From sequence record PP920554.1: DNA of 43,039 nucleotides. One strand, given 5' to 3'. Shown in pieces: positions 5,574 through 41,638 of this stretch (the first letter of the stretch is position 1; each line of letters opens with the position of its first letter). The DNA is from Escherichia phage SM_S24. Both the position numbers and the translations under genes were made by a program. The notes below the pieces were generated by a model that searched no databases, had not been told where the DNA came from, and saw only the letters and a list, made by a program, of their open reading frames with translations.

Positions 5574-5602
5574 TTTTGTGTCCTCGTTGTTGGTGTGCAA
5601 CC

Positions 5603-25969: not shown

Positions 25970-26661
25970 TTTAAATTTTCCTCGTTAACCGCTATCGCGA
26001 AGCCGCGCGGGGTGAGTGAGCGGATTAATTTTGTACGAGCGGATTTACCACCGAGGCGACTATACTGCTTCGAGTACCCTTTTTCAACGAAAACAGGTTT
26101 CTTCTCTGGCATACGGAAGCCGTTTCCAGTCCATAAGCAGGTCAGCTTCGGATATGAATCGCGGGCGTTGATGTATTCAGGGAACAACGGATGTACGTCA
26201 TCCTCCGGCAGATATCCCCCATACTCCCACGGGTCGAACGAGTGATCAGGCTTGCGCCACTGGGTGGAAAGCACACTGCGCGGATTCTCAATCATATATG
26301 GCACTTCGAAGAAGTCACCCAGGTAAGCGGCGATCTTCGCGGTTCGCACCGCCTTAAGCTGAAAGGCGGGGTCTTTTGCACGCTTGCGCGGGAAAGCTGG
26401 CGCGCCGCTCACTGCCAGATCCGTACACGGAGGGAACGCATAGATTATATCCGGCGTACCGAAATCGCCATTCATCGCGCGGTCCACGAAGTCCAGGTCG
26501 ATAAACTCATTGCGATACCGTATTCCGCGACCATAAATCCGGTAGTCAAGGTACGACCCGTGATCGGCTTCGGAGTAGTTAAAACAGTAGCACTTATGCC
26601 CCATCTCGGCAGCACGCTCAATCATCAAGCCGCTGCCGTCAAACAATGACCAGATTATCAT
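25966..26661 (-). CDS. DNA cytosine-5 methyltransferase-like protein (short)
   Basis: 231 aa; SLFDGSG (motif I-like FxGxG), AFPPCTD (motif IV-like Pro-Cys), MIENP (motif VI-like ENV); unusually short for a complete C5 enzyme. Confidence 0.45.
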   Translation of the reverse strand: MIIWSLFDGSGLMIERAAEMGHKCYCFNYSEADHGSYLDYRIYGRGIRYRNEFIDLDFVDRAMNGDFGTPDIIYAFPPCTDLAVSGAPAFPRKRAKDPAFQLKAVRTAKIAAYLGDFFEVPYMIENPRSVLSTQWRKPDHSFDPWEYGGYLPEDDVHPLFPEYINARDSYPKLTCLWTGNGFRMPEKKPVFVEKGYSKQYSRLGGKSARTKLIRSLTPRGFAIAVNEENLK

Positions 26662-32467: not shown

Positions 32468-33890
32468 TGCTTAAGTCCTCGTCAGTAGCTTCCGACCACG
32501 CAGGGCGCGGGTCGTCGATTGGTGCTAACACCGGTTTGGCAGGTGCGCGCGTTATTTTATCACACAACTTTGCCCACACTTTCGGCTTCTCGTCCTTCAG
32601 TACCTTCTCGGCATCAGTAGGGCTGAGTAATGTTTCTTTGTACATAACATCGCGCTTGATCCGGGCCTTCGTGAAGATTTCAATAACTTCGCTCTCGTCC
32701 GCCCACTTACGGATCCCTTCCTTACCGGCAACCATCTTGAGGCCCAGCGATTCACCATCACCCGCCATTACAGCCTTAAATACCGCGGACTCGATCGCTT
32801 TGATGTGCTGGCGCATTGCGTCCAGACCTTCATAAGCCTTGCGCAGTTCCGCAGCGCTCATAGCGCCTGGGGCCGCTTCTTTCTTACCGCGCTTCGCACG
32901 TCGTGCCGCCTTCCTGGCTTCGCGGGCCATATTGCGGTCGTGATTGGCGCATTCTTCCTCGGTCGCCACGCTCACGTCGTCGCCCAGGTCTTCGTCGGTT
33001 GCCGTTGGAGGTGTCATCGTGTCGATTGCGGCCTTAGCGCGGGCACTACACTGATCCGCAAATCGACACCACTGGCACGCATCAACGCTGGGCCGGAAGT
33101 CTGCGCGGGTGAGTCCCTTCTTGCCTCGGGAATACGCCTCCAGTGCGGCAATAGCGCGCTTGGATGCAAACTTCGCGAATATCTCCAGGGCTTCTACCGA
33201 AATATCCCACTCCGACGCCCCGCCGCAATACGGCTGGAAGATAACCAGTCGCACGGTTGTAATGTCGTACATAGTTTGCAGCTTGCGCAGCAGTCCGAGC
33301 GCGTACAACATAAGCTGTTTGTTCTCTTTCGCCTCGACCTTATGCCGCCCGGTCTTCAGGTCGCCAACAATCAGCATGTACGTTCCATCGGTCTTTTTCA
33401 TTACCATGACCATATCGGCAGTACCGAACGTTTTAATCCTGTTGCCGTCGATCTCGTAGCCTGAGTGAAGGACGCGGGTCAGATCGGCGCGCATCTCAAG
33501 CTGGACAAACTCCGCCACTTCGAGGAGCGGTCGCCAGTGGTCGATGTACGCGTCGCACTGTTTCACCATGTCGTCGTTGACCAGTACGCCGCCTTTCGGT
33601 GCTTTAGGGTGTGCCTTTACTGGCCCCTTGCCTTCGTTCTCGACGTAGCACCCTTTATACGTCTTCGCGGTTATCAGCTTTTCCCCAGCAATGATGCGGT
33701 TTAGCACGACCTCTGATACAGTGTGCATACTTGTACCGTTAATCGCAGCTTGCCCGGATTCGTTCGGGATATCTTTTTCGACCACCAGGGCGGCAGGGCA
33801 ACCCATCCATTTTTTAGCACCGGACGGTCCGAGTAATGAGTGTTCCGTATTGCTACCGGATTGCGTTTTACGTTTTGGTTTAATCGCCAT
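32460..33890 (-). CDS. Cas4/RecB-like PD-(D/E)XK exonuclease (DUF2800-like)
   Basis: 476 aa; N-terminal HSLLGPSGAKKWMGCP motif and Cys cluster CQWCRFADQC (one N-terminal plus three C-terminal Cys) typical of Cas4-like nucleases; co-located with gp2.5-like SSB and PolA. Confidence 0.7.
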   Translation of the reverse strand: MAIKPKRKTQSGSNTEHSLLGPSGAKKWMGCPAALVVEKDIPNESGQAAINGTSMHTVSEVVLNRIIAGEKLITAKTYKGCYVENEGKGPVKAHPKAPKGGVLVNDDMVKQCDAYIDHWRPLLEVAEFVQLEMRADLTRVLHSGYEIDGNRIKTFGTADMVMVMKKTDGTYMLIVGDLKTGRHKVEAKENKQLMLYALGLLRKLQTMYDITTVRLVIFQPYCGGASEWDISVEALEIFAKFASKRAIAALEAYSRGKKGLTRADFRPSVDACQWCRFADQCSARAKAAIDTMTPPTATDEDLGDDVSVATEEECANHDRNMAREARKAARRAKRGKKEAAPGAMSAAELRKAYEGLDAMRQHIKAIESAVFKAVMAGDGESLGLKMVAGKEGIRKWADESEVIEIFTKARIKRDVMYKETLLSPTDAEKVLKDEKPKVWAKLCDKITRAPAKPVLAPIDDPRPAWSEATDEDLSNE

Positions 33891-34078
33891 TATTCCACCC
33901 TTGAAAACTGAGCAATGTAATAATCATGTTCAACATTGGCCCGCTTAGCGGCATTGTTCATGGTAGCCGCCAGTCCTCGGGCTTGCATCCAGCAGCAATT
34001 CCAGTTTTGATTCATAACAATTTCCGGTTGCTCGTCGCCGGTAATACGGCAACGAAATAAAACAAAGAAGATAGCCAT
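33890..34078 (-). CDS. hypothetical small protein
   Basis: 62-aa track ORF overlapping the start of the nuclease gene; start uncertain. Confidence 0.25.
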   Translation of the reverse strand: MAIFFVLFRCRITGDEQPEIVMNQNWNCCWMQARGLAATMNNAAKRANVEHDYYIAQFSRVE

Positions 34079-34330
34079 TTATTTTGTCTCCCAGCGGTCA
34101 ATTGTTCTTGCTTCGGATGCAACTGCGAAGCGAACATATTCCAGATTGGAATCCGCCCAAATATAAAAATCGGGGTTAGTAAAGGTGGTGCGCTTAATTT
34201 GCGCGGGGGTGTTGCGGCGTTTATCTATTACGGCAACTCGCGACTGAAAGCTGCCGATGCGTTCGAACAGCCAATAGTACGGGCGCTGGTCGCGGGAGTC
34301 CACCGCCTCGATTAGCGTGAAGCGTGCCAT
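34079..34330 (-). CDS. hypothetical protein
   Basis: 83 aa, ATG with RBS GAGGA directly after an intrinsic terminator. Confidence 0.4.
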   Translation of the reverse strand: MARFTLIEAVDSRDQRPYYWLFERIGSFQSRVAVIDKRRNTPAQIKRTTFTNPDFYIWADSNLEYVRFAVASEARTIDRWETK

Positions 34331-34342
34331 TGTCTCGTCCTC

Positions 34343-34370
34343 TAAAAAGAGGCCCGCTAATCTGCGGGCC
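34343..34370 (-). terminator. intrinsic terminator after the acidic repeat protein gene (minus strand)
   Basis: GGCCCGC-AGATTA-GCGGGCC followed by TCTTTTTAG on the minus strand. Confidence 0.6.
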
Positions 34371-34378
34371 GGAATATA

Positions 34379-34894
34379 CTAATCTTCCAGTTCGAAATAG
34401 GTTTCGACGATTTCTTTTAGCTCTTTGTGGAAGTCTTCGACGTCGTCATCTTCCAGCTTGGCGATTGATTTGATCTCGAACGATTCCAGCAGGTCGTCGA
34501 ATTCGTCGATCGCATCGTCGTCATCGCCACCGGCGATAATCGCGGCATACTGTTTGATTTCGTCGCGCATCTCTGCCAGCGGGTCGGCATCTTTCTTACC
34601 TTTGCCTTTCGCCGGTGCTTTCTTAGACTTAGCCGGTTTTTCGTCTTCGGCATCGTCGTCGTCATCTTCTACGACTTCTTTTTTAGCCTTACCTTTCGCC
34701 GGTGCTTTTTTAGATTTAGCCGGTTTTTCGTCTTCAGCTTCATCGTCGTCATCTTCGACAACTTCTTTTTTCGCCTTAGATGGCTTTTTATCTTCCTGCT
34801 TACCAACGGCAGCGCCAACGGTTTCATAATGTTTAGCGATTGTTTCCAGTGCTACTACGCCGCGAGTAATCAGGTTTACGATTTGTTCGAACAT
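34379..34894 (-). CDS. acidic mixed-charge repeat protein (first leftward early gene)
   Basis: 171 aa from ATG 34894 (RBS GGAG); two tandem KPAKSKKAPAKGKAKKEVVEDDDDDAEDE repeats and a strongly acidic C-terminus; own sigma70-like promoter upstream and intrinsic terminator downstream. Confidence 0.5.
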   Translation of the reverse strand: MFEQIVNLITRGVVALETIAKHYETVGAAVGKQEDKKPSKAKKEVVEDDDDEAEDEKPAKSKKAPAKGKAKKEVVEDDDDDAEDEKPAKSKKAPAKGKGKKDADPLAEMRDEIKQYAAIIAGGDDDDAIDEFDDLLESFEIKSIAKLEDDDVEDFHKELKEIVETYFELED

Positions 34895-35090
34895 GGTATA
34901 TCTCCGATTGGTTAAGTTTAGGTGTCGGCAGTTAACTTCGTCGGTGGCCTTAACATATTGCCCGGTTGCGCGTTCTCCCGTTCGGGTAGTGGACCGGGTT
35001 ATATAATCACGGTTGGGAATCCTGACACTTCGATCCGGCCCCTGCGTTGCCCCTCTCCAGTTTGCGTCCTGCATCCTGTCGACGGAGTGA

Positions 35091-35120
35091 ATGATAGATT
35101 GGTTGCAGGATGGGTGTCAA
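35091..35120 (-). promoter_or_regulatory. leftward early promoter (sigma70-like)
   Basis: minus strand TTGACA-18 nt-TATCAT; TGCAACCAAT box inside the spacer. Confidence 0.55.
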
Positions 35121-35131
35121 CAACTAATTTC

Positions 35132-35165
35132 AAAAAAAAAGCGCCGAGGCAAAATGCACCGGCGC
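35132..35165 (-). terminator. intrinsic terminator upstream of the leftward early promoter (minus strand)
   Basis: GCGCCGGTGCATTTTGCCTCGGCGC followed by nine T on the minus strand. Confidence 0.6.
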
Positions 35166-35195
35166 TAACCAATAAGAGACAATGAGACGGGAATT

Positions 35196-35224
35196 ATTAT
35201 TACACGCGTGCGCGCCCGTTTCAA
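35196..35224 (-). promoter_or_regulatory. second leftward promoter-like element upstream of the terminator
   Basis: minus strand TTGAAA-17 nt-AATAAT; predicted start about 58 nt upstream of the 35132-35165 terminator end. Confidence 0.35.
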
Positions 35225-35236
35225 TATCCAAAGGAT

Positions 35237-35265
35237 TTGACACCTTGTGGTTTTAGGTGTAGTTT
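35237..35265 (+). promoter_or_regulatory. rightward early promoter for the HTH regulator gene
   Basis: TTGACA-17 nt-TAGTTT, back-to-back with the leftward promoter elements. Confidence 0.5.
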
Positions 35266-35296
35266 CATTGGTCATTAGCCAACAGGAGACTGAATT

Positions 35297-35626
35297 ATGA
35301 ATATCAAAGAAGCAATTGAAGTGTTATCTAATGCAATCCGCGGCGAAGCGGGTAAATCCTGGTATTACACAAATGCGGTGGATACTCTGTTATTTGAAGT
35401 GTCCAGATTATCGCGTGCTGAGAAGGAGCTTACCGCGAAGCTGGAATTACTCAACGGTACGGCAGCAAGCAAGCTGCAAAAGCACAATGAAGAAATGGAA
35501 GAATACAAAAAACAGGTTATCCGTCTACGTGAGGAAGGTAAATCCTGGGCGATGATTGCCGAGTTGACCGGAATTAATCAGAGCACAGTGCGCTCCTGGG
35601 TACGCAATAATAAAACTTCTAAGTAA
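35297..35626 (+). CDS. HTH DNA-binding protein (putative transcriptional regulator)
   Basis: 109 aa, RBS AGGAG; C-terminal helix-turn-helix-like segment WAMIAELTGINQSTVRSWV; first rightward gene at the divergent promoter region. Confidence 0.55.
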   Translation: MNIKEAIEVLSNAIRGEAGKSWYYTNAVDTLLFEVSRLSRAEKELTAKLELLNGTAASKLQKHNEEMEEYKKQVIRLREEGKSWAMIAELTGINQSTVRSWVRNNKTSK

Positions 35627-35636
35627 GGCCACGGCA

Positions 35637-37901
35637 ATGAGCTTAATTAAATTCGCTGTAACAAGACCCGCTAAAAAAGGCGAAAAAGCCAGGGCGGAAA
35701 ACTTCCAGATGACTACCGAAGAGTTTTTCGAATTTATCAATGATGCGAAAGAAATCTCCTCGGTGCATATCAACAAAACGGAAGATAAAGCCGAGTATGC
35801 ACGCCGCAAGCGTAAGGCCGACGGCATCGTGGCGTATACCAGTGACGGATTGCGTCGCAAGACCAGTGCGGTGGACCGCTCGATCCTGTTCTTCGATATT
35901 GACCGTACTGACACCCGCACCCTACGCCGCTGCCGTAAGGCGTTCATCGACGCGGGACTGGAGCACGTCTTCCACACCACAACCGGCGACCGTCACCCAC
36001 TGAAAGGTGGAACGCGTTGCGCTCGCTTCCTGGTGTTGACCGACAAGCCTGTACCGGCTGAAGACCTGGGCCGTGTCCAGTATGCGCTATTACACCAACT
36101 GGGCCTGTCAGATGTGGACTTCGACGACTGCACGAAAGACACAAACCGCCTTATGTACCTACCACACCAGCAGTCTGTTATTAAGTGCCACTATGGCAAG
36201 CGCGCCCGCGTCCGTCGTCTGCTTCGCCTGGCTGACAAGCTGGGAGTTGAGAAAGAGGAAGTCCGCCGCGAACTGACCCAGGGCGACGACGCAGTGGCAG
36301 ACGGCATTCTGGACTGGTGCTTCCAGGCAGGATTCGAGGAGTTATCTTCCGGTCGGGGTTATGAAGTGCCGTGCCCGAACGAACATCTGCACAGCGGCGA
36401 AGGGTCGACGGCTATCATGGTCAAGGATGGCGAGATCCGTTTCAAGTGTATGCACACAGGCAACGAGTGTTGCTCGGAACTGAATAGGCACCAGCACCTG
36501 GCGCTACGTCTTATCGGGATCCCGGACCACCTGAACGTCGAGCCACACAATATGTCCCGTAAGCAAATCGCCGCCATCCTTCCGGGGCTGGACGACGAAG
36601 AAGTCGAATCCTTATATGAACATATTGTTGATGCAGTTGGCGACGGCGAAGAATACGGCGTGTGCACCGATGCAGATCTGGATAACGAGCCGGTTGCGCT
36701 GTTCAGTAAGCACGACCCGATTATCGAGGGGTTGATTAACTTTAAATCGACCTGGTACATGGCGGGTGAGTCGAATATCGGTAAGTCTTTCTACGTGCTG
36801 GGCCAGATGGGTGCGGTTGCCGCGGGGATTCCGTTCGGCGGTGCGAAGGTCGTCCAGTCTCATTGCTTCTATTTCGACGCGGAAGGTGGTGAAGCCTCCA
36901 ACCAGCGTAAGGAAGCACTGCAGATCAAATATGAGCACGACCTGGATAAGCTGCACATTATAGACCTGCAGTCACGCGGCTGGGATATCACCAGCAAATC
37001 AGGCTTGCGCGAAGTTATCAGCTTTATCAACCGCACCGCTAACGGCGAACCGGTTGGCCTGGTGGCGTTCGACTCTCTCAACCAGACTGTTGCGCTGCGG
37101 TCCGCCGATGCTAAACCGTTCGACGAGAACAACGCCAGCGATATGGGCGAAGTGGTAAAAGCGCTGAAAGCCATCGCGGAAAATACCGGCGGCAGTGCTG
37201 GCGTCATCCACCACCCGGCGAAGGGTGCAAACGGCAGCAGATCCCCCCGCGGGTCCGGCGCGCTGCATGGTGCTGTTGATTCTGCGTTCTTCCTTGAGCA
37301 ACCGGACGACAACCAGCCAGGCCAATTGAACCTGTATCACGAAAAGGCACGTAACGGCATCAAGCAAGCGCCGCGTGGCTTCGTCCTGCTCAAGTGCAAG
37401 GTGAAGGTAGATCTCCGCAAGTCAGAAGCGTTCGCGTCGCACCAGTCCACCAGCACCGGTCCGGACTTCGGCGACGTGGTTGCCGGATGGGACGTCAAGC
37501 CGATTGCCTCCACGCCACGCGACGAGACTCTCTACCTCGTACCGGTTGCCCTGGCACCGTTCGCTATTGAACAGGCGAAGGCCGCGGGCAAAGCAGCAGT
37601 TAAAGAAGAGAACACCGCCGGACCGCGCAACGAAAAAGAGAAAGTGCTCTATGCGGCACTGGAAAAACTGATGGAAGATAACCCGGACCATACTGGATTC
37701 AGTAAATCGGCAATTGTCCGCCAGGCTGGGCTGGCAAAAGGTGGCACTTCGACGAAGGCAATCGACGATATGGTGGAGCGAGGAGTGATAGGTTTTTACA
37801 CCGATCCGCACACCGGGGCCATCTATGGGTCGTCTAATTTGGTCATCAAATCGGATATACCCATCACGCTTTCAGCGACCGATGACGATTTAAAAGATTA
37901 A
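35637..37901 (+). CDS. primase-helicase (AEP-type primase, zinc-binding region, P-loop NTPase)
   Basis: 754 aa; N-terminal DxD-type motif ILFFDIDRTD, Cys/His cluster CPNEHLHSGE...CMHTGNEC, Walker A GESNIGKS and Walker B-like LVAFDSL; iteron array begins at its stop codon. Confidence 0.7.
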   Translation: MSLIKFAVTRPAKKGEKARAENFQMTTEEFFEFINDAKEISSVHINKTEDKAEYARRKRKADGIVAYTSDGLRRKTSAVDRSILFFDIDRTDTRTLRRCRKAFIDAGLEHVFHTTTGDRHPLKGGTRCARFLVLTDKPVPAEDLGRVQYALLHQLGLSDVDFDDCTKDTNRLMYLPHQQSVIKCHYGKRARVRRLLRLADKLGVEKEEVRRELTQGDDAVADGILDWCFQAGFEELSSGRGYEVPCPNEHLHSGEGSTAIMVKDGEIRFKCMHTGNECCSELNRHQHLALRLIGIPDHLNVEPHNMSRKQIAAILPGLDDEEVESLYEHIVDAVGDGEEYGVCTDADLDNEPVALFSKHDPIIEGLINFKSTWYMAGESNIGKSFYVLGQMGAVAAGIPFGGAKVVQSHCFYFDAEGGEASNQRKEALQIKYEHDLDKLHIIDLQSRGWDITSKSGLREVISFINRTANGEPVGLVAFDSLNQTVALRSADAKPFDENNASDMGEVVKALKAIAENTGGSAGVIHHPAKGANGSRSPRGSGALHGAVDSAFFLEQPDDNQPGQLNLYHEKARNGIKQAPRGFVLLKCKVKVDLRKSEAFASHQSTSTGPDFGDVVAGWDVKPIASTPRDETLYLVPVALAPFAIEQAKAAGKAAVKEENTAGPRNEKEKVLYAALEKLMEDNPDHTGFSKSAIVRQAGLAKGGTSTKAIDDMVERGVIGFYTDPHTGAIYGSSNLVIKSDIPITLSATDDDLKD

Positions 37902-38167
37902 ATTTTGCGCGCATTGGTCGCCGTTATGGGAATCCCCATATCGGTAAAAGATTAAATTTTGCGCGCATTGGTCGCCGTTATGGGAATCCCCATATCGGTA
38001 AAAGATTAAATTTTGCGCGCATTGGTTGCCATTTTGCGTGCTTTTAGCCGGTCGTTAAAAGATTAAATTTTGCGCGCATTGGTCGCCGTTATGGGAATCC
38101 CCATATCGGTAAAAGATTAAATTTTGCGCGCATTGGTTGCCATTTTGCGTGCTTTTAGCCGGTCGTA
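37892..38167. repeat. iteron array, candidate origin of replication
   Basis: five tandem 54-57 bp units (A-A-B-A-B) sharing core AAAAGATTAAATTTTGCGCGCATTGGT(C/T)GCC with the 8-bp palindrome TGCGCGCA; begins at the primase-helicase stop codon. Confidence 0.6.
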
Positions 38168-38194
38168 TTGGTTGCCGTGTAGTGTAAATATAAT
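38168..38194 (+). promoter_or_regulatory. promoter-like element upstream of GGGACA array B
   Basis: perfect TATAAT at about 38189-38194 with weak -35 (TTGGTT, 15-nt spacer) inside an ATTGGTTGCC box. Confidence 0.35.
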
Positions 38195-38224
38195 GAATAG
38201 TTATGCAGTTTTATTGCATAAAGT

Positions 38225-38330
38225 AAGCGGGACAAAAAGCGGGACAGACCAGGGGCGGGACAAAGCGGGACAGCACCCTGTCCCGCCCCGGATGACGCGG
38301 CCTGGCGAGGAGCGGGACAGCGGGACAGCA
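38225..38330 (+). repeat. array B of GCGGGACA(R) octamers
   Basis: copies at about 38227, 38239, 38255, 38265, 38312, 38321 plus inverted TGTCCCGC at 38279; preceded by a TTATGCA/TGCATAA inverted pair and a TATAAT box. Confidence 0.8.
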
Positions 38331-38383
38331 CCCCAGTCTTTCAGACTAGACGGGGGGTCTGGCACCCCCCTCGTCTGAGACTG
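38331..38383 (+). other. conserved imperfect hairpin element, copy 2
   Basis: CCCCAGTCTTTCAGACTAGACGGGGGG-TCTGGCA-CCCCCCTCGTCTGAGACTG; arms identical to copy 1. Confidence 0.75.
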
Positions 38384-38542
38384 CATAAAATCCGGGATTG
38401 CATAACGCACGGCAACAAGATGCGAATTGCGGTCGTCGATGAACTAGGCAACCAATGCGCGTTGCAGAATGGTGGGCGAAAAATGCAGTTTGCAGTTGCA
38501 GCAGATAGCGATCAACTTTTTCATGCGCGTGATTAATATTGG

Positions 38543-38571
38543 TTGCATTCACCCTGGCACCCTGCTATTTT
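38543..38571 (+). promoter_or_regulatory. promoter-like element upstream of the 38600 operon
   Basis: TTGCAT-17 nt-TATTTT; -35 inside ATTGGTTGCAT, second TTGGTTGCA just downstream; region nearly identical to the moron 5' region. Confidence 0.45.
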
Positions 38572-38599
38572 GGTTGCACACCAACAAGAGGACTGAACG

Positions 38600-38926
38600 A
38601 TGAGAGCGATTATCTGGAATTACGCAATGGCTATGGCGGCGGCACAAGAAGCGGCGGAGTTCGCCGGTGAAGGAGCGGAAGCGGTCGAAAGACTATCGGC
38701 AGCGTGGTCCGTTGTTCGCGTTACGCAGCAGGCCATCGCCTGTATGCTGGAGCGCCGCTTCGACACTATGGCAGAGATTCAGCCACTGGCGAACGCTATC
38801 CAGGATTACGCGCTTGCCTTTGCCCGTGAGCGCCTGGCGTATCGCTTCGGGATCGGCGAGACGGCAGTGACTAACGTCGCCCGGATTAAAGCCCAGCGTG
38901 AGCTATTCTCCCAGCTTGCGAAATAA
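38600..38926 (+). CDS. hypothetical protein
   Basis: 108 aa, RBS AAGAGGA 7 nt upstream; first gene after the second GGGACA array. Confidence 0.45.
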   Translation: MRAIIWNYAMAMAAAQEAAEFAGEGAEAVERLSAAWSVVRVTQQAIACMLERRFDTMAEIQPLANAIQDYALAFARERLAYRFGIGETAVTNVARIKAQRELFSQLAK

Positions 38927-41608: not shown

Positions 41609-41638
41609 TTGACTTGCAACCAATTAATAGCTCATACT
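41609..41638 (+). promoter_or_regulatory. promoter-like element upstream of the leader-like peptide and HTH-phosphoesterase gene
   Basis: TTGACT then TGCAACCAAT in the spacer, -10-like CATACT, second TGCGACCAAT downstream. Confidence 0.4.

Follow-up and report, generated by a model that had tools for sequence, protein, structure and literature searches.

A conserved, putative small RNA unit in the divergent early control region of Escherichia phage SM_S24

The locus and the elements of the unit

Dhillonviruses are common phages of Escherichia coli, with more than 150 known genomes; the genus includes several members of the BASEL collection, as well as SECphi18, which has been used in work on defence systems. 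To our knowledge, how these phages control their early genes is uncharted. Many regulatory RNAs have been described from temperate phages, and few have been characterised in virulent ones. The DNA considered here, 43,039 nucleotides (nt) of Escherichia phage SM_S24 (sequence record PP920554.1), is analysed at its full length, which we call the window. It comes from a Dhillonvirus, an HK578-like E. coli siphophage, and it carries on its minus strand a short unit made of a promoter-like sequence closely followed by an intrinsic terminator. Genes run rightward up to about 22.7 kb; those from 34.9 down to 22.8 kb are leftward, and beyond 35.3 kb the direction is rightward once more, so that the unit sits where the two main gene blocks diverge and are presumably controlled. 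At about 35 kb, within this divergent intergenic region, the cumulative GC skew turns. The elements are the following, P_sRNA standing for the promoter of the unit, PL for the main leftward promoter and PR for a candidate rightward one.

34379..34894, minus strand: first leftward gene (ATG at 34894), coding for a 171-aa acidic protein of phrog_3127 (unknown function); putative target
35091..35120, minus strand: PL, TTGACA-18-TATCAT, an 11/12 match, with GCAACCAAT inside the spacer
From the T9 tract to PL, minus strand: linker GAAATTAGTTG, read from the sequence
35132..35140, minus strand: T9 tract (U-tail of the RNA), sharing the last base of the hairpin and also lying at about -47 to -55 of PL
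35140..35166, minus strand: terminator hairpin AGCGCCGG.UGC/GCA.CCGGCGCU (in full AGCGCCGGTGCATTTTGCCTCGGCGCT), 27 nt, from RNAfold
35167..35188, minus strand: RNA body GUCUCAUUGUCUCUUAUUGGUU (GTCTCATTGTCTCTTATTGGTT in minus-strand reading), 22 nt, with predicted 5' end G35188; proposed pairing region
35189..35195, minus strand: discriminator AATTCCC, 7 nt, from the -10 to the predicted start
35196..35201, minus strand: P_sRNA -10 hexamer AATAAT, from promoter scan and sequence
35202..35218, minus strand: P_sRNA spacer CGGGCGCGCACGCGTGT, 17 nt, GC-rich, ending in the TGn (TGT) of an extended -10
35219..35224, minus strand: P_sRNA -35 hexamer TTGAAA, read from the sequence
35237..35265, plus strand: PR, TTGACA-17-TAGTTT, back to back with P_sRNA and below the promoter-scan threshold
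35297..35626, plus strand: first rightward gene (ATG at 35297), coding for a 109-aa protein with a sigma-70 region-4-like helix-turn-helix (HTH); putative second target

The primase-helicase gene comes after the HTH gene. The original prediction, made from the letters of the DNA, had placed a TTGAAA-17-AATAAT promoter-like pair on the minus strand, and the pair is there, with a TG extension in addition. It had also announced a hairpin terminator with nine U about 58 nt further on. Both are present, and 57 nt separate the predicted start (G35188, 8 nt past the -10) from the end of the T-run, which is the expected length of the RNA. The hairpin is slightly longer than the 25 nt that had been given, since it spans 27 nt; it folds at -16.9 kcal/mol (z = -2.6 against shuffles), the first T of the T9 tract is able to close its stem, and RNAfold leaves the 22-nt body unpaired. 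The main leftward promoter, claimed to lie directly past the terminator, is indeed found at 35120-35091. Its -35 begins 11 nt after the terminator, and a T9/AAATTAG stretch occupies about -40 to -55 of PL. As for PR, its hexamers are conserved among relatives while its spacer is variable.

How much of this could be due to chance? Over the 43 kb, promoter-like sites matching at least 10/12 positions number 3, against 3.9 +/- 2.0 in first-order Markov simulations, hence there is no overall enrichment. Two of these three sites are on the same strand, 105 nt apart, in the only divergent intergenic region, and the two best promoter-like sites of the whole window are P_sRNA and PL. The T9 tract is the only run of at least 8 T on either strand.

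It had also been stated that the unit has no open reading frame (ORF). Taken literally this does not hold, as two mechanical ORFs of 36-37 aa overlap it (35130..35243 and 35165..35275), but the substance of the claim stands, as neither is coding. Both begin upstream of P_sRNA, and in close relatives indels of 1-3 nt shift their frames. Comparison of the loci of diverged clades found no ORF common to the clades at this place.

Conservation across lineages

Relatives of the phage are many: a 1-kb query matches 175 phage records, with identities of 80-99%, and a query with the 241-bp intergenic core matches 154. The region hardly varies among 21 canonical relatives, and the P_sRNA spacer is nearly the same throughout this clade. 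Counted over an alignment of 22 distinct canonical sequences (clade A), invariant columns amount to 21/22 in the RNA body, 24/29 in P_sRNA from -35 to -10, 10/10 in the stretch from the terminator to PL and 0/7 in the discriminator. The corresponding figures are 48% for PR, 47% for the leftward coding sequence (CDS) and 20% for the HTH CDS. The RNA body together with P_sRNA is the most constrained part of the locus, and constraint ends sharply at the discriminator. We take the RNA body to be under selection.

Diverged relatives were fetched from metagenomes via homologues of the HTH protein. The lineages considered are clade A (canonical), B, C (L061; the related L073 is handled separately), D, E and F. 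One layout is common to six or seven diverged lineages, all read in the same orientation. It begins with a -35 of the form TTG..., a 17-18-nt spacer with GCGCGC and a -10 of the form TAnnAT, which is followed after exactly 7 nt by G(U/C)(C)UCAUUG; then come a body of 20-45 nt, a hairpin, U8-U13, an A/T-rich stretch and PL. In other lineages than that of the window, the P_sRNA -35 reads TTGCGC, TTGTGC, TTGTAC or TTGCGT, with TTG always kept, and the -10 reads TATTAT, TAAGAT or TATAAT, each of them 7 nt before G(U/C)(C)UCAUUG. The motif (G)UCUCAUUG at the 5' end of the RNA is kept in other clades, and PL has in all lineages the form TTGAC(A/G)...GCAACCAAT...TAnnAT.

The terminator follows another rule. 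Its stems are unrelated between clades (AGCGCCG, AUCCCCAG, CCCUGCC, CCCGCAAAA, GCCUGGCC, UCCCC), with folds of -16 to -22 kcal/mol, and in other clades five unrelated stems occupy the same position. Within clade A itself, the stem of Ioannina and L005 has gone from AGCGCCG/CGGCGCT to ATCCCCG/CGGGGAT, that is, two double compensatory changes, and automatic alignment of the hairpins finds pairs retained despite changes on both sides. The closest outgroup examined is a member of the Guernseyvirinae, the Salmonella phage GRNsp27, whose primase is 44% identical; neither terminator nor unit is present in its divergent region of 158 bp. Looking for further diverged relatives with the pattern TTGTTGAC-N9-GCAACCAAT in IMG/VR produced mostly chance matches, and the phage collection, searched by blastn with the intergenic region of L017, gave no match.

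Among the possibilities that the original prediction had listed, that of a short non-coding RNA fares best: promoter, start spacing, body and terminator are conserved in diverged lineages, and the body is the most conserved stretch. We conclude that this small transcription unit with its own terminator is real and conserved and had not been described before, and that a short RNA is likely to be made from it.

Two observations belong with this comparison. In clades B-D (for example L017, at about 1330-1375) a PR-like TTGCAC-17-TATATT and the P_sRNA sequence TTGCGC-17-TATTAT are interleaved on opposite strands, each -35 lying within the other's spacer; RNA polymerase could therefore hold only one of the two at once. 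The two promoters of the window do not overlap. The HTH protein, 76-100% identical among canonical phages, has a C-terminal part of about 60 residues, its DNA-binding half, that is invariant in all clades, and a strongly divergent N-terminal half.

Predicted pairing with flanking start regions and competing explanations

Two start regions on either side of the unit are complementary to the body, within which UCUCUUAUUGG is a seed candidate.

34899..34914, minus strand: proposed target site 1, UAACCAAUCGGAGAUA, spanning the Shine-Dalgarno GGAG of the first leftward gene (inverted repeat I1)
35275..35292, plus strand: proposed target site 2, UUAGCCAACAGGAGACUG, around the HTH gene's Shine-Dalgarno sequence (duplex prediction)

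The top inverted repeat of the intergenic region pairs UCUCUUAUUGGUUA of the body (35179-35166) with UAACCAAUCGGAGA (34914-34901), matching at 13/14 positions including one G-U, plus two further pairs, so that the match to the leftward start region covers 14-16 nt with one mismatch. The duplex with site 1 is predicted at -18.0 kcal/mol (seed-shuffle p = 0.006), and cofolding gains -12.4 kcal/mol (ddG) with the terminator intact. For site 2 the duplex is at -18.7 kcal/mol (p = 0.002) and the cofold ddG is -7.2 kcal/mol.

The leftward test set the body against positions -45..+20 of the first leftward gene, with 1000 dinucleotide-preserving shuffles of the body. The hypothesis was set in the window and then applied elsewhere, so that the four tests in other clades bear on a site fixed beforehand. 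In clades A-E the cognate duplex is better than those of the shuffles (p 0.002-0.02 overall): 0.006-0.02 in A, 0.004-0.013 in B, 0.002 in C, 0.002 in D and 0.006 in E. The arms that pair are not the same sequences. In clades B and C they are ACUCCUGAA with UUUAGGAGU, and clade C has an additional perfect 13-mer in the 5' untranslated region (5'UTR), GCCGUGUUGGCGA with UCGCCAACACGGC. Clade D has UCUCAUUG with CAAUGAGG, plus UUUGCCG..UUGGC with GCCAA..CGGCAAA, and clade E has UAUCUCC with GGAGAUA. When bodies and start regions are crossed between clades, cognate pairs come out best or near-best, the long C body excepted, and cofolding of both full RNAs yields a net gain of -11 to -21 kcal/mol, with the terminator retained. 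On the rightward side, complementarity to the start region of the HTH gene is found in clade A (p 0.002, 13/14 positions), clade E (p 0.01, over 17 nt from the Shine-Dalgarno through the AUG), clade F (p 0.012) and L073 (p 0.017), where a 9-nt perfect match joins the conserved 5' end GUCUCAUUG to CAAUGAGAC.

The reading that we favour, with a probability of roughly 0.45, is that of a small RNA of about 57 nt, the 5' body of which would pair where translation of the first leftward gene starts, and where that of the HTH gene starts as well in several lineages. Host sigma-70 RNA polymerase would initiate at about G35188 from the extended -10 promoter and halt at the intrinsic terminator before reaching PL. 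The product would be an accessible pyrimidine-rich 5' body followed by the terminator hairpin and a long U-tail, which by analogy is the architecture of enterobacterial base-pairing small RNAs. The body would then cover the Shine-Dalgarno region of the first leftward early cistron, and in several lineages that of the rightward HTH gene, and pairing would reduce or time translation once the RNA accumulates. The terminator would also shield PL from the upstream promoter, and PL would probably have in the T-tract an UP-like element. What the analysis shows directly is the sequence elements with their conservation and covariation, the lack of an ORF and the complementarity with its statistics; synthesis of the RNA, the position of its 5' end, pairing in vivo and a repressive effect are what we infer from sequence.

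Several points weigh against this picture. By duplex energy, 1.8% of the 65-nt windows taken across the 43 kb pair with the body as well or better, and the figure is 2-12% in the 3-kb loci of other clades; the better-pairing genomic windows are mostly GC-rich coding sequence. Ranking by duplex energy over the genome was accordingly discarded as support, as the flanking start regions rank no higher than the top 1-2% in the window, and the top 12% in other clades. Shine-Dalgarno sequences of any gene are apt to match an RNA rich in C and U, and the target site of the window was picked post hoc. Leftward pairing is weaker in the Ioannina lineage, within clade A (p 0.12). On the rightward side it is weak in clades B (p 0.07) and D (p 0.25) and absent in clade C (p 0.66). 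L073 has one uncompensated mismatch. Part of the window's arm, AACCAAT, resembles the DNA motif GCAACCAAT, so that the repeat may have a DNA-level origin. Finally, a literature search found no Dhillonvirus transcriptome; nor did it find a promoter map or a description of a small RNA for these phages.

A more ambitious version holds that a single anti-Shine-Dalgarno RNA would control together the translation of the cistron that opens each early unit, and would evolve in step with it; these cistrons would be those of the leftward acidic protein and the rightward HTH regulator, with perhaps, in the lineage of the window, the gene at 38600. We deem it unlikely. The third target was set aside: the start-region motif is shared by gene 38600 in the window, but in clade B this gene has no counterpart, and the equivalent start region there offers only 5 bp of complementarity. 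The motif itself, (A/G)CCAA(C/T)N(A/G)GAG(A/G) followed by a start codon, occurs ahead of the first leftward gene (34912, minus strand), the HTH gene (35278, plus strand) and the gene at 38600 (38580, plus strand). A fourth copy of the extended motif, without an ORF, lies on the plus strand of the RNA locus at 35168. It looks as if the RNA gene derived from an inverted copy of a start region.

A rather unlikely alternative, and one that the original prediction had raised, is that the unit is an insulator combined with an UP element: the terminator and T-tract would shield PL and feed it, and the RNA would be the functionless by-product of a promoter standing next to PR. The geometry is suitable, with a terminator ending 11 nt before the -35 of PL and the T9/AAATTAG stretch placed at about -40 to -55. 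The DNA from terminator to PL is A/T-rich in all clades, and the interleaving of P_sRNA and PR in clades B-D evokes promoter competition. Yet the only transcription to be blocked is that from the unit's own promoter, itself conserved in all clades, and an insulator needs the terminator only, whereas the body is invariant at 21/22 columns next to a discriminator that varies freely. The terminator with its T-tract could thus serve in this way, compatibly with the small RNA model, but insulation leaves the invariant body unexplained.

It is distinctly unlikely that the conserved sequences act as DNA, the body and repeats binding a phage protein (the HTH protein or an origin-binding one) that controls PL, PR or replication, with RNA complementarity as a side effect of repeated operator sequences. 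What speaks for it is chiefly the motif GCAACCAA, present 20 times in the window where about 1.3 are expected, and often paired (examples of GCAACCAA(T) are at 5597/5610, 23953/23965, 25620/25637, 32191/32207, 35099, 38022-38570 and 41616). It is found within promoter-like spacers just upstream of the -10, in PL and in TTGACT-18-CATACT at 41609, as well as in the iteron-like array described below, and every diverged clade has kept it. Probably a DNA-binding protein of the phage recognises it, or else it marks a class of phage promoters. The body of the window includes ATTGGTT, and GCGCGC is common to the P_sRNA spacer and the iterons. Against this, just three AACCAAT copies are not preceded by C, and two of them are the variant TAACCAAT found in the body and in the leftward start region; the bodies of other clades lack the motif and are nonetheless complementary to their own start regions through different sequences. 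Moreover, the DNA-binding half of the HTH protein is invariant and the pairing arms are clade-specific. With GCAACCAAT also invariant, RNA pairing fits this combination better than recognition by a protein.

Another possibility, which we consider quite improbable, is that the RNA is real and acts elsewhere, for example by pairing with mRNAs of the host or by sequestering Hfq or some other protein that binds RNA, its match to the phage start regions reflecting an incidental anti-Shine-Dalgarno composition. The architecture (free 5' region, A/U-rich stretch, hairpin, long U-tail) is of the Hfq type, and many windows of the phage pair equally well by energy. Phage small RNAs with host targets are known: PreS/LPR1 of lambda, a base-pairing small RNA of lytic growth found by RIL-seq, targets host dnaN (10.1101/2024.10.31.621285). 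Unlike PreS, the present unit is known from prediction alone, and the best target candidates for it are genes of the phage itself. Its body differs strongly between clades that presumably share similar hosts, which argues against a single conserved host target, and nothing similar in sequence was found in 5,426 E. coli genomes.

Very improbable is an antitermination cassette in the manner of lambda pR'-tR', in which a phage factor would override the terminator and read-through would later feed the leftward operon. There is a promoter closely followed by a terminator ahead of an operon, as required, but a stronger promoter (11/12) past the terminator makes the operon independent of read-through, Pfam and PHROG scans of 12 neighbouring proteins show no Q-like or other antiterminator family, and no conserved RNA structure precedes the terminator. 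The attenuator of the leftward operon that had been suggested, or a riboswitch, is not supported, as PL follows the terminator and gives the operon its own 11/12 promoter, the body is predicted unpaired with no conserved alternative antiterminator helix or other alternative structure, and there is no leader peptide or leader-family match, the cmscan leader matches being below threshold (L20_leader, 21.4 bits for a gathering score of 58.7; Trp_leader, 19.6 for 41).

Known systems, neighbouring features and meaning

Rfam offers no counterpart of the unit: cmscan of 33000-38000 (E up to 5) and of five diverged loci (E up to 1) gives no match at gathering score, and the weak matches are driven by the terminator. 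Comparison has thus to be made with modes of action. The c4 antisense RNA of P1 and P7 (immI region; Rfam C4) is cut from its target's own transcript and has a two-loop structure. In mode of action it is the closest analogue: both are phage small RNAs placed upstream of the target operon in the same orientation, with short non-contiguous complementarity, here predicted, to the ribosome-binding region of the first cistron. Unlike c4, the present unit comes with a promoter and a terminator of its own, placed ahead of the promoter of the putative target, and its phage is virulent, not temperate. OOP of lambda and sar of P22 are also close: these phage RNAs of about 60-80 nt, made from a constitutive sigma-70 promoter and ended by an intrinsic terminator, down-regulate an early regulator by pairing, as the present RNA would if our reading is right. 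By contrast with these cis-antisense RNAs, which overlap their targets, the unit has nothing encoded opposite to it, and the complementary sites are 60-290 nt away. It belongs to none of c4, OOP and sar.

With Hfq-dependent small RNAs that use a 5' seed (RybB, MicC and DicF of prophage Qin) the predicted RNA has in common an unpaired 5' region for pairing, a stretch rich in A and U, a Rho-independent terminator ending in many U, and predicted pairing over the Shine-Dalgarno or start codon. It differs from them in having no sequence or covariance-model similarity to Rfam and in coming from a virulent siphophage, with no copy in the E. coli genomes searched. The 6S RNA of lambda pR'-tR' likewise combines a promoter with a strong terminator within tens of nucleotides, upstream of an operon. 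That RNA belongs to a substrate of Q antitermination, whereas here a near-consensus promoter follows the terminator and no Q-like protein is among the neighbours scanned.

Several features of the surroundings merit mention. On the plus strand, a repeat array runs from 37887 to 38600, starting right at the stop codon of the primase-helicase gene. It comprises first five or six tandem units of about 54 nt (AAAAGATTAAATTTTGCGCGCATTGGT(C/T)GCC...), then six AGCGGGACA repeats with an inverted copy, then an inverted GGCAACCAATGCGCG followed by two ATTGGTTGCA copies just ahead of the gene at 38600; GCAACCAA is also part of it, and clade B (L059) has a shorter array with the same motifs. The array looks like an iteron-type replication origin or a regulatory region. 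A role of the small unit as replication primer or origin was considered and rejected: the minimum of GC skew at about 35 kb is equally explained by divergent transcription, and the iteron array at 37.9-38.6 kb is much the stronger candidate for an origin.

The 5'UTR of the leftward operon contains, at 34927-35075 on the minus strand, a segment of about 148 nt present in the window and in some canonical relatives, almost identical in the diverged clade E (L063) and cleanly missing from other close relatives. One stem position within it has three Watson-Crick variants (A-U, U-A and C-G, in ACCNGG...CCN'GG). It has no Rfam match, and its fold is not better than those of shuffles. The segment is found at this position only, in Dhillonvirus-like contigs, and it may be a mobile or recombining UTR module. 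Far from the control region, the third-best sigma-70-like site of the window (26059-26087, minus strand, TTGAAA-17-TATAGT, 10/12) lies within an ORF of the leftward operon, for which it may serve as an internal promoter.

Current annotation reflects little of this. In the public records examined, no RNA gene is annotated at the unit; two of them mark a terminator at the hairpin, and the strand is right in WF5505 but wrong in CS16. In CHD5UKE2 a 47-aa CDS (gp39) is placed over the unit, two small plus-strand CDSs (Bas85_0052 and Bas85_0053) are laid on it in another record, and the first leftward CDS of Ioannina is annotated as spanning the entire intergenic region. Loci with such annotation problems are L020 1543-1686, L018 962-1696, L021 1513-1707 and L001 1933-1966. 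The 109-aa HTH protein goes under the names of transposase, resolvase and 'DNA recombination nuclease inhibitor gamma', which look unfounded. The locus is thus at present unannotated, or wrongly filled with small hypothetical proteins, or given a terminator on the wrong strand.

What the unit may mean goes further than annotation. The natural variants that are specific to each clade are ready-made compensatory controls for the proposed pairing. A conserved small RNA at the divergent control region would be an entry point to how a virulent phage times or limits the synthesis of its early proteins. If the more ambitious version described above is true, a virulent siphophage that depends wholly on the RNA polymerase of its host would have, at the divergent control region of its genome, an RNA-based timer or brake on early expression.

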